This document shows, in pieces, positions 93 to 1,091 of a stretch of DNA of 64,000 nucleotides. The notes beneath the pieces are model-generated. The model saw only the letters and a list, made by a program, of their open reading frames with translations, made no database searches and was not told the origin of the DNA. Numbering within the stretch: position 1 is the first letter of the stretch; every line of letters begins with the position of its first letter. Made by a program: the position numbers and the translations under genes. The stretch comes from Escherichia phage Turkey3. Where the stretch lies: sequence record PQ471515.1, one strand, 5' to 3'.

Positions 93-278
93 ATGCATAG
101 AGAATACTATATACAATTTGTTAAAGGGAACTACAAACACGCCGTCCCCGTAAACCCCTTAAATTCTAATGACCCAAGTACTATATTCTTGTTCCATGAC
201 GCAATACGTACAGTACTCAATACTAAAGATGAACAGGTGCAGTACGTATTCTTACTATTACTTATATACAGACACTAA
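93..278 (+). CDS. small repeat-family protein (coding status uncertain)
   Basis: ORF within tandem repeat unit 1; weak RBS. Confidence 0.25.
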   Translation: MHREYYIQFVKGNYKHAVPVNPLNSNDPSTIFLFHDAIRTVLNTKDEQVQYVFLLLLIYRH

Positions 279-283
279 CTAAT

Positions 284-493
284 ATGAATAAAGAACATAA
301 AGAATACTACTCCAAACACCTCAGCCCCTCAGAACAAATGTTTCTAAGGACTACAGCACCTTTAAGTACTGATACTTATTTCGGCAGAGTATGCTACAAT
401 AATTGTATTCAAATGACTTTAAACGCAAACGACAATAATAACAGTACTAACCTGTACTCAGGCATCATAGGTATACTATTTCTATATGAATAA
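284..493 (+). CDS. small repeat-family protein (coding status uncertain)
   Basis: ORF within tandem repeat unit 2; N-term MNKEHKEYY. Confidence 0.3.
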   Translation: MNKEHKEYYSKHLSPSEQMFLRTTAPLSTDTYFGRVCYNNCIQMTLNANDNNNSTNLYSGIIGILFLYE

Positions 494-668
494 AGAACAT
501 AAAGACTTCTATATAAGAAAACTAACATTCGTCCCCGTAAAAATATATAAAGAATGCGACCCAAGATTATACCTATGGCACTTCAATGAGTGCATAAAAG
601 ATTCTATATACCCTAAGAACTATAAAGAACAATTGATCTCAGTACTAACACTAGTACTATCATATTAA
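486..668 (+). CDS. small repeat-family protein (coding status uncertain)
   Basis: ORF within tandem repeat unit 3; N-term MNKEHKDFY; overlaps previous stop. Confidence 0.3.
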   Translation: MNKEHKDFYIRKLTFVPVKIYKECDPRLYLWHFNECIKDSIYPKNYKEQLISVLTLVLSY

Positions 669-681
669 TAGAGATAATACT

Positions 682-873
682 ATGCATAAAGACTATAAAG
701 AGTACTATATAAGTAAACTAAAAGAAAACGAACAAGCATGGGTTAACAATTTAATCCCCCTGGCAATGACTCAATACGAATTTAATATGTGTACAAAGAT
801 TGTTTTAACTAGTAATGATATCTCTAATACGTACTACTTCCTATTAAGAGTACTATATGGTACTTTGAAATAA
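682..873 (+). CDS. small repeat-family protein (coding status uncertain)
   Basis: ORF within tandem repeat unit 4; N-term MHKDYKEYYISKL. Confidence 0.3.
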   Translation: MHKDYKEYYISKLKENEQAWVNNLIPLAMTQYEFNMCTKIVLTSNDISNTYYFLLRVLYGTLK

Positions 874-884
874 TAAGGTATACT

Positions 885-1091
885 ATGCAGAACATAAAAA
901 ACTATAAAGAGTACTATATAAGTAAACTACCACCGACTGACCAAGCATGGATTAGATCTATAATAGTACTGGCATTTAATAGATATGCATTTAACAGATG
1001 TACCGAGATTGCTATAGACCCTTATAATATTAAAGAGAATGTACAGCATAATCAGTACTACTATATGTTAATGCTTATATATAGGAAGTAA
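885..1091 (+). CDS. small repeat-family protein (coding status uncertain)
   Basis: ORF within tandem repeat unit 5; KNYKEYYISKL. Confidence 0.3.
   Translation: MQNIKNYKEYYISKLPPTDQAWIRSIIVLAFNRYAFNRCTEIAIDPYNIKENVQHNQYYYMLMLIYRK

Follow-up and report, generated by a model that had tools for sequence, protein, structure and literature searches.

The first 1,091 nucleotides of a 64,000-nucleotide stretch of Escherichia phage Turkey3 (sequence record PQ471515.1; this whole stretch is referred to as the window) very probably represent the downstream end of an array in which paralogous protein-coding genes follow one another in tandem (positions 93-1091 together with 1-91) and whose products are helical proteins of 59-70 amino acids (aa). 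Paralogous small-gene arrays are a familiar kind of feature in large phages, and the family found here is uncharacterised. Its members are already present in databases as hypothetical proteins, partly as the family PHROG 11711. A preliminary description of this DNA, made from the letters alone, had read 93-1091 as five tandem repeats of ~200 bp, each with a small ORF ending in a hydrophobic tail, and had offered two interpretations, namely a family of small and possibly membrane-active proteins or non-coding DNA repeats that happen to stay open.

The Array and Its Coding Capacity

Five open reading frames (ORFs) on the plus strand make up the portion of the array that is complete in the window, with start-to-start distances of 191, 202, 196, and 203 bp, and each encodes a product matching PHROG 11711. 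Unit 1 (93-278; 61 aa, MHREYY...YVFLLLLIYRH; E 2.1e-9) is followed by unit 2 (284-493; 69 aa, MNKEHKEYY...GIIGILFLYE; E 7e-10), whose end, with the stop codon, shares 8 nt with the start of unit 3 (486-668; 60 aa, tail ISVLTLVLSY; E 2.2e-6). Unit 4 (682-873; 63 aa, tail YYFLLRVLYGTLK; E 7.8e-14) precedes unit 5 (885-1091; 68 aa, tail YYYMLMLIYRK; E 3e-19), which is the final gene of the array. At the other end, positions 1-91 on the plus strand hold the 3′ end of a sixth family gene, which encodes ...QFHYHTLCAINPDYNTYKLYYILALIYRY* and is truncated by the window edge; its product matches the C-terminus of a 61-aa ORF at 3906-4091 of the WPEC3 locus (L002). The C-terminus encoded at 2-91 thus shows that the window start cuts through a longer array. 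ORFs of at least 59 aa number five on the plus strand, where they cover 970 of 1020 nt, and zero on the opposite strand. By comparison, 2000 dinucleotide-preserving shuffles give a mean of 0.04 such ORFs and a maximum of 2.

Two kinds of substitution test address whether these frames are translated. In the first, the ratio of non-synonymous to synonymous substitution rates (dN/dS) is pooled over reciprocal-best orthologs in five genome pairs, with 7-13 ortholog pairs per genome pair. The annotated frame yields a pooled dN/dS of 0.27-0.51, and the two shifted frames, applied to the identical alignments, yield 1.04-1.48. Pooled substitutions by codon position (for example 32/36/80, 59/40/94, and 71/51/121) concentrate at the third position. 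The second test is frame-agnostic, comparing the five window units with up to 12 relatives in DNA-level alignments, and thereby avoids selecting pairs by protein identity. Here the variable columns fall at codon positions 1, 2, and 3 in the proportion 62/44/85 (chi-square p = 0.0013). For single units the corresponding counts are 7/10/15 in unit 1, which is open in 12 distinct orthologs, 13/5/21 in unit 2, and 4/5/7 in unit 3, while the individual dN/dS is 0.25-0.54 for unit 1 and, against close orthologs, 0.23-0.38 for unit 2. The per-unit ratios are too noisy for units 3-5, and the pooled, frame-controlled tests are therefore used instead. The outcome agrees with the expectation set beforehand for coding DNA, in that the frame is preserved, third positions show a synonymous bias, and dN/dS is below 1 in the annotated frame only.

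The reading frames are also maintained across relatives. All array copies in verified records are open at 59-70 aa, the sole internal indel that a verified record shows in the alignments of the window units is 3 nt long and in frame (in one ortholog of unit 4), and a 9-nt insertion in slurp01 is likewise in frame. Among the 21 paralogs of BF17, conserved Leu columns employ 4-5 codons, both TTA and CTN among these, and conserved Tyr, Cys, Glu, and Ile columns employ 2-3 codons each. Judged from these substitution patterns, the five window units are shown to be protein-coding genes under purifying selection at the protein level. Frame disruptions are found in the CMSTMSU locus (L015; ~5001-5849), where the unit 3 ortholog carries a 44-bp insertion and the unit 5 ortholog a 1-nt deletion. 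These could be either sequencing errors or genuine pseudogenes, and they are discounted because the record is flagged UNVERIFIED. Apparent frameshifts in A4, ph0011, and UE-S1 were rejected as alignment extension across an intergenic 1-nt indel, intact ORFs being present in these records.

Kinship among the units resides in the proteins, as protein profiles reveal it where DNA comparison fails. Tandem Repeats Finder reports no repeat over 1-1100, and gapped pairwise DNA identity among units is 64-78%, compared to 65 +/- 3% for shuffled sequences. A repeat search recovers as recurring DNA just a ~41-nt segment at the 5′ ends of units, in 4 copies of 71-85% identity, and units 4 and 5 share one 120-nt DNA match at 73% identity. 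Taking a tandem DNA repeat as head-to-tail copies alike at the DNA level, at about 70% or more, the array is neither a tandem DNA repeat nor a satellite. The preliminary description thus stands in its five ORFs, which lie on one strand 191-203 bp apart, and in the hydrophobic run at the C-terminus of each product, which is 8-11 residues long, but not in its ~200-bp DNA repeats nor in the number five, as the array is longer. Similarly, the shared start ATGAATAAAGAACATAAAGA(A/C)T is present in the units at 284 and 486, while the other three starts are related but different.

Protein Family and Predicted Fold

All five window ORFs match PHROG 11711 over its full length (profile positions 1-2 to 54-62 of 62). 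This profile was built from proteins of the same Asteriusvirus phages (e.g., PBECO4 p282), is annotated as function unknown, and offers no functional information. It also spans only part of the family, since ORFs at 1723-1905 and 717-926 of the WPEC3 locus (L002) give no match. An iterated hidden Markov model (HMM) search seeded with the five window proteins and run to convergence collects all small ORFs of the array, 127 in seven relatives, into one family, including upstream array members that miss PHROG 11711. The claim of a small-protein family is therefore borne out by the PHROG 11711 matches (E 2e-6 to 3e-19), by a single iterative profile, and by frame-specific selection.

Three motifs characterise the family: an N-terminal K-E-Y-Y-x-x-K-L (pattern [KQ][ED][YF]Y..(K)L; alignments A1 and A2), a central C-T/I (pattern C[TI]..[AS][IL]), and a C-terminal Y-x-x-L-x-L-I (pattern Y..[LIV]L.L[IV]). 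In the family alignments, a Tyr of the N-terminal motif is invariant and a Leu is nearly invariant (>=90%). The window ORFs possess the length of 59-70 aa, the three motifs, and the tandem same-strand layout that define the array family, and the protein identity between array copies is 17-58%.

Searches beyond the phage family return no further kin. Pfam and PADLOC scans of the five window proteins give no match, and a search of PDB sequences with the family profile gives a best E of 0.35 (RGS4), which is judged to be chance. A word-indexed search of 5.8 billion proteins recovers 50 family proteins, and 17 clusters are recovered when 1.84 billion cluster representatives are searched exhaustively with HMMER. 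All of these matches are 49-98 aa long with the same motifs and architecture, every source name points to Asteriusvirus-type phages, and distant relatives were found in neither search. Matches in a tblastn search over 50,697 phage records are likewise confined to Asteriusvirus. The small-protein array family is thus restricted to the Asteriusvirus lineage.

Structure prediction points to a compact helical domain. The AlphaFold2 model of unit 1, based on a 47-sequence alignment, has a mean predicted local distance difference test score (pLDDT) of 85.9 and a predicted template modeling score (pTM) of 0.70, with helices at residues 3-7, 12-17, 28-43, and 47-58, the C-terminal helix 4 having a pLDDT of 88-95. 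For unit 5, the model reaches a pLDDT of 72.5 and a pTM of 0.52, with helices at 2-13, 17-26, 33-44, and 57-66. In both models the hydrophobic tail is predicted to form the last helix of a compact four-helix domain, and we infer from the compactness given by pTM and from the conservation pattern that the tail would pack into the core. Across 102 distinct members, the median grand average of hydropathy (GRAVY) is -0.35, Tyr makes up 11% of residues, and the isoelectric point (pI) has a median of 8.3 and a range of 4.5-10.0. The family proteins are accordingly predicted to be small, tyrosine-rich, soluble, and helical. Fold searches find no likeness to baseplate or DNA-binding proteins.

Copy Number, Recombination, and Divergence

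Megablast of window positions 1-2400 finds 36 phage records at 91-98% identity, all Escherichia or Salmonella jumbo phages of Asteriusvirus, with BF17, fEgEco12, WPEC3, PBECO4, and 121Q among the relatives, which marks the window as DNA of an Asteriusvirus jumbo coliphage similar to PBECO4, 121Q, and BF17. The full locus in these relatives comprises, in order, a minus-strand cluster of RCC1-like genes, a gap of ~100 bp, a 75-aa ORF, and the array, followed by ~2 kb of non-coding DNA. The array itself consists of 13-21 abutting small ORFs on the plus strand, broken once by an ORF of 219-223 aa that corresponds to PHROG 29152 (function unknown). An origin of the 219-aa ORF as a fusion of units was not accepted, given its marginal C-terminal likeness (domain E 0.038 in a two-sequence search), and the first ORF, of 75 aa, would belong to the family at most as a highly divergent member (E 0.004). 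GenBank records label the array stretch merely as hypothetical protein, and several annotate 2-10 of the 13-21 genes.

The RCC1-like genes directly upstream of the array, on the opposite strand, occur in 11-17 tandem copies (11 in phAPEC6 and ~17 in BF17), at 1675-19014 of the BF17 locus (L009) and 1-2734 of the 121Q locus (L005), and two RCC1-like proteins are virion proteins in phAPEC6. Like the small-gene array which it adjoins, the RCC1-like cluster, which is oriented divergently, is a tandem multigene family of variable copy number. However, its products are ~370-400 aa long, contain a recognised beta-propeller domain, and are found in part in the virion, whereas the array proteins are helical and lack a recognised domain.

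The number of array genes ranges from 13 to 21 among genomes in which the array is fully covered, and units have recombined with one another. WPEC3 lacks unit 3, and in place of units 3 and 4 it contains one chimera with the N-terminus of unit 3 and the body of unit 4. Unit 4/5 chimeras occur in TH47 and the PBECO4 group, and the N-terminal third of unit 5 is a mosaic with unit 4-type sequence in other phages. The chimera junctions are located in the conserved 5′ segment, a position consistent with unequal crossing-over or gene conversion at that segment.

The array is the least conserved and fastest-diverging stretch locally. Against JNE01, the array aligns over 22% of its length at 73.8% identity, compared to 98% at 91.6% for the non-coding DNA at 1395-3050 and 100% at 94.6% for the genes of the terminal repeat. 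In the comparison with A4, 63% of the array aligns, with 78.6% identity, and the repeat genes are 89.0% identical. Gene accordions, such as that of poxvirus K3L, are tandem amplifications and diversifications of host-antagonist genes. The phage array resembles them in its copy-number variation, its chimeras, and its fastest local evolution, and it displays variation in copy number and inter-unit recombination among close relatives, which are two of the marks of an accordion. It differs in that its copies are old and highly diverged (17-58% protein identity) rather than recent identical amplifications.

Expression Signals

A promoter-like element, TTGACA-17-TAC(T/A)AT, precedes the first array ORF in 11 genomes, including the most distant, JNE01, and is situated in the gap that separates the first array gene from the divergently oriented RCC1-like cluster. 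Its spacer contains the palindrome CAGTACTG in 10 of the 11 genomes, JNE01 having CTGGACTG instead. AAGGAG or TAGGAG follows 6-8 nt before the first array ATG, and the promoter, the Shine-Dalgarno sequence, and the ATG are conserved in all 11. Within the array, no comparable promoter and no terminator-like site was found.

Translation signals inside the array are weak, as the preliminary description had noted. In WPEC3, a Shine-Dalgarno match is missing from 7 of 20 array ORFs, compared to 15 of 79 control ORFs, and the remaining array ORFs have matches of 3-6 nt (3 nt in six). This weakness is attributed to the tight spacing of the genes behind a first ORF with a strong AAGGAG. Neighbouring genes are separated by -8 to +19 nt, with overlaps of the ATGA type and of 8 nt among them, and close spacing or overlap is the usual layout for translational coupling. 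Moreover, A-rich codons after the ATG, such as AAT AAA GAA CAT AAA here, favour initiation.

Downstream of unit 5, a non-coding trailer on the plus strand (1092-1394) separates the array from the terminal repeat and is predicted to form a strongly structured RNA. The minimum free energy (MFE) for 1092-1430 is -100.1 kcal/mol, compared to -72.8 +/- 5.0 kcal/mol for shuffles (z = -5.5), and long hairpins are predicted near 1134-1180 and 1218-1300. The array neighbourhood gives no match in Rfam and tRNA scans. A terminator scan places a terminator-like hairpin, GGCAGAGGAAGTCTGCC followed by a T-run, at 1395-1425 on the plus strand (hairpin 1399-1415), which is the putative end of the array operon.

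Alternative Explanations

Several observations weigh against an array of selected genes that are expressed as one unit for a role in the host. The per-gene selection signal is weak for units 3-5: unit 4 has a dN/dS of about 0.65-0.69 against BF17 and WPEC3, the substitutions in unit 3 are too few to yield a separate dN/dS, and unit 5 has an apparent pairwise dN/dS of 1.2-1.9. The promoter and terminator calls are consensus matches, and promoter-like hits overall are not enriched over shuffles; the ribosome-binding sites of the array genes are weak, and a literature search found no transcriptomic or intracellular proteomic data for the genus. The virion proteome of phAPEC6 (62 proteins) holds no array protein, a result that is uninformative on intracellular expression. 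A host-interaction role is suggested by analogy and evolutionary pattern, and the array lies outside the terminal repeat, in contrast to the takeover modules of SPO1 and T5.

The best-surviving alternative, although an unlikely one, is that the array consists of largely redundant, decaying duplicates, in which one or a few copies are functional and the rest drift under relaxed constraint and are kept by recombination. This would account for dN/dS values near or above 1 in units 3 and 5 (the former from few substitutions), for the loss of whole units without obvious consequence in natural isolates, and for the fastest local divergence of the array. However, every copy in verified records is open at 59-70 aa, frame-disrupted copies occurring solely in the UNVERIFIED record of CMSTMSU, and pooled dN/dS is 0.27-0.51. 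The pairwise dN/dS above 1 of unit 5 is confounded by recombination: its high value arises because mosaic N-termini have been exchanged with unit 4-type sequence rather than through point substitutions, and is thus explained by chimerism.

Somewhat less probable still is that the products are small membrane-active peptides, an idea raised by the preliminary description; they would resemble holins or type I toxins, or depolarise the membrane, and would insert by means of their hydrophobic C-terminus. The proteins are indeed small and numerous, each ends in 8-11 hydrophobic residues, and the 11-residue Kyte-Doolittle mean reaches 2.25. Type I toxins, holins, and other small membrane peptides are likewise small proteins with a hydrophobic segment, but theirs is at least 18 residues long, whereas the array proteins have 8-11 and a fold that is predicted to be globular. 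When a membrane helix is taken to require a 19-residue Kyte-Doolittle mean of at least 1.6, none of the 102 members qualifies (0/102; maximum 1.14), and their median GRAVY is negative. In addition, Tyr, Arg, or Lys often lies within the tail, the N-terminus is charged, and no signal peptide is present. As the tail is too short to span a membrane and is modelled as helix 4 of a compact fold, the membrane interpretation was set aside.

A similarly low probability attaches to the proposal that the genes encode small virion or DNA-packaging proteins, either as partners of the RCC1-like 'DNA condensation' proteins or as a baseplate component. The array adjoins 11-17 RCC1-like genes, two of which encode phAPEC6 virion proteins, and the median pI of 8.3 is in accord with such a role, but the pI range of 4.5-10.0 indicates that the family is not uniformly basic. 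UniRef names the 68-aa fEgEco12 protein that is identical to unit 5 (885-1088) 'Baseplate wedge subunit'. This label is unsupported, since there is no Pfam, PDB, or fold likeness to baseplate or DNA-binding proteins and the fEgEco12 paper gives no basis for it. Furthermore, no family member is found among the 62 phAPEC6 virion proteins, the array promoter is of the sigma-70 type and not of the late type, and a copy-number range of 13-21 is rare for structural genes.

Finally, non-coding DNA repeats, such as protein-binding or packaging sites near the terminus with frames open by accident, can be dismissed, as far as sequence analysis reaches, as scarcely credible: the array does adjoin the terminal-repeat edge, its 41-nt segment is conserved in DNA, and its excess of AGTACT (11 vs 3.4 expected) hints at some superimposed DNA-level signal, but that excess is genome-wide and not array-specific, inter-unit DNA similarity is near the shuffled level while protein profiles match strongly, 13-21 consecutive frames stay open in 68% A+T DNA, and, decisively for its rejection, substitutions preserve the frame with a synonymous, third-position bias (62/44/85), dN/dS is below 1 in the annotated frame only, and conserved residues use varied codons.

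Genome Position and Neighboring Sequence Features

BF17 possesses an exact direct terminal repeat of 20,590 bp, the left edge of which aligns to window position 1395 and the right end to ~22,363. Terminal repeats of similar length are described for fEgEco12 (20,993 bp, by PhageTerm and confirmed by restriction digests; PMC13070987) and Sharanji (20,668 bp; PMC11895373). As 1395 and ~22363 correspond to the repeat edges of BF17 and fEgEco12, the window is a collapsed-repeat or circularised representation: it starts in the right end of the unique region, crosses the repeat, and continues into the left unique region. The last coding feature of the unique region is therefore the array, which ends at 1091, 304 bp before the terminal-repeat edge.

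The DNA around and beyond this edge has features of its own. Positions 1290-3000 contain ~1.9 kb without a convincing ORF and ~20 palindromes of the TTCAGTACTGAA type, and are conserved between phages above the coding array (91-97% identity at 97-100% coverage). A perfect TTGACA-16-TATAAT promoter with a palindrome in its spacer is located at 1759-1786. Iteron-like short tandem repeats with periods of 8, 16, 32, and 40 nt (unit about GGCTAGACGTCTGGAT) are located at 2203-2294, near the start of the terminal repeat, and possibly serve in replication or packaging. A stereotyped promoter, AAAGTACTTGCAA-N16-TATAAT-GTTTTACATC, then a G+C-rich hairpin, stands before most small terminal-repeat genes, with sites within ~3000-9000 (e.g., 3031, 3491, 4169, 4732, 5534, 8515, and 8834). 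This arrangement suggests a large set of early transcription units served by host RNA polymerase. Farther downstream, at 28595-29290, a 356-bp unit is tandemly duplicated at 80% identity, corresponding to two ORFs of ~112 aa (28596-28934 and 28949-29290), which make up a further local pair of paralogs.

The palindrome AGTACT, with the consensus (C)AGTACT(G), occurs 264 times in 1-64000 against about 21 expected (12-fold), and no other 6-bp palindrome in the window exceeds 2.5-fold. Inside ORFs it appears in all three frames, ~3.5-fold above synonymous-codon shuffles (50 vs 14.4; 85 vs 23.1), and 106 further copies lie in 13.7 kb of non-ORF DNA. The five array ORFs have 11 copies in all three frames, compared to 3.4 from synonymous shuffles. 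Given its presence in all frames, its excess over synonymous shuffles, and its non-ORF copies, AGTACT is read as a DNA-level signal; a literature search found no paper mentioning the motif. An AGTACT-poor island extends over ~22400-39000, from the right-hand repeat edge onward; the motif is absent from about 23-27 kb and 30-39 kb, and 28-30 kb has 10 copies. The island has a G+C content of 29-33%, lower than that of its flanks, and diverges from BF17 more than they do (80-87% identity).

Possible Function and Significance

Under the favoured reading as an array of selected protein-coding genes, a sequence of events can be proposed. The whole array would be one operon read by host sigma-70 RNA polymerase from the TTGACA-17-TAC(T/A)AT promoter, and transcription would stop at the hairpin at 1399-1415. 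Ribosomes would enter at the first gene, with its strong AAGGAG, and the abutting or overlapping downstream genes would be translated by coupling, aided by their A-rich second to seventh codons. The proteins would then act early as accessory factors, binding components of the host or of its defences, which is the most speculative step. The fold would be preserved by the conserved core (Y, L, C, and Y..L.LI), and variation in surfaces and copy number would make the targets more diverse.

From the promoter type, position, lineage restriction, and evolutionary pattern of the array, the best guess at its function, a tentative one of rather low probability, is that its products are early proteins with an accessory role or a role in host interaction. 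Stretches of short ORFs that carry RpoD-like promoters and lie near the repeat of the related phage CBB are suspected to contain early host-takeover genes (PMC5259590). For the function of the Turkey3 array, CBB offers an analogy and not evidence. Takeover or pre-early modules are also known as genes 37-60 of SPO1 (gp37-60), located in its terminal redundancy, as the pre-early genes of T5, located in its long terminal repeat, and as the 'tre' genes of Twort-like staphylococcal phages. The array is similar to these modules in its consecutive small same-strand ORFs, its putative host-type promoter, and its location at a genome end with a long repeat. In contrast, modules of the SPO1/T5 type lie inside the repeat and consist of mostly unrelated genes, whereas the array is one paralog family, and there is no sequence or fold likeness between them.

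A bolder form of this idea, which is possible though improbable, is that the array may serve as a self-diversifying library of small binders. A fixed four-helix scaffold would display hypervariable surfaces, unequal crossing-over at the conserved 41-nt 5′ segment would enlarge, shrink, and reshuffle the array, and the copies would neutralise different early targets in host defence or takeover, which would make the array a counter-defence counterpart, in phage, of a gene accordion.

For annotation, the array offers a lesson, as many records list 2-10 of the 13-21 genes and one copy bears the unsupported 'baseplate wedge' label. If the products are indeed early factors that target the host or its defences, each phage would carry 13-21 natural variants of one tiny scaffold. 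These would be convenient material in which to look for new anti-defence and host-takeover activities in jumbo coliphages that are therapeutic candidates, and the array would represent a clear case of recombination-driven diversification in phage.

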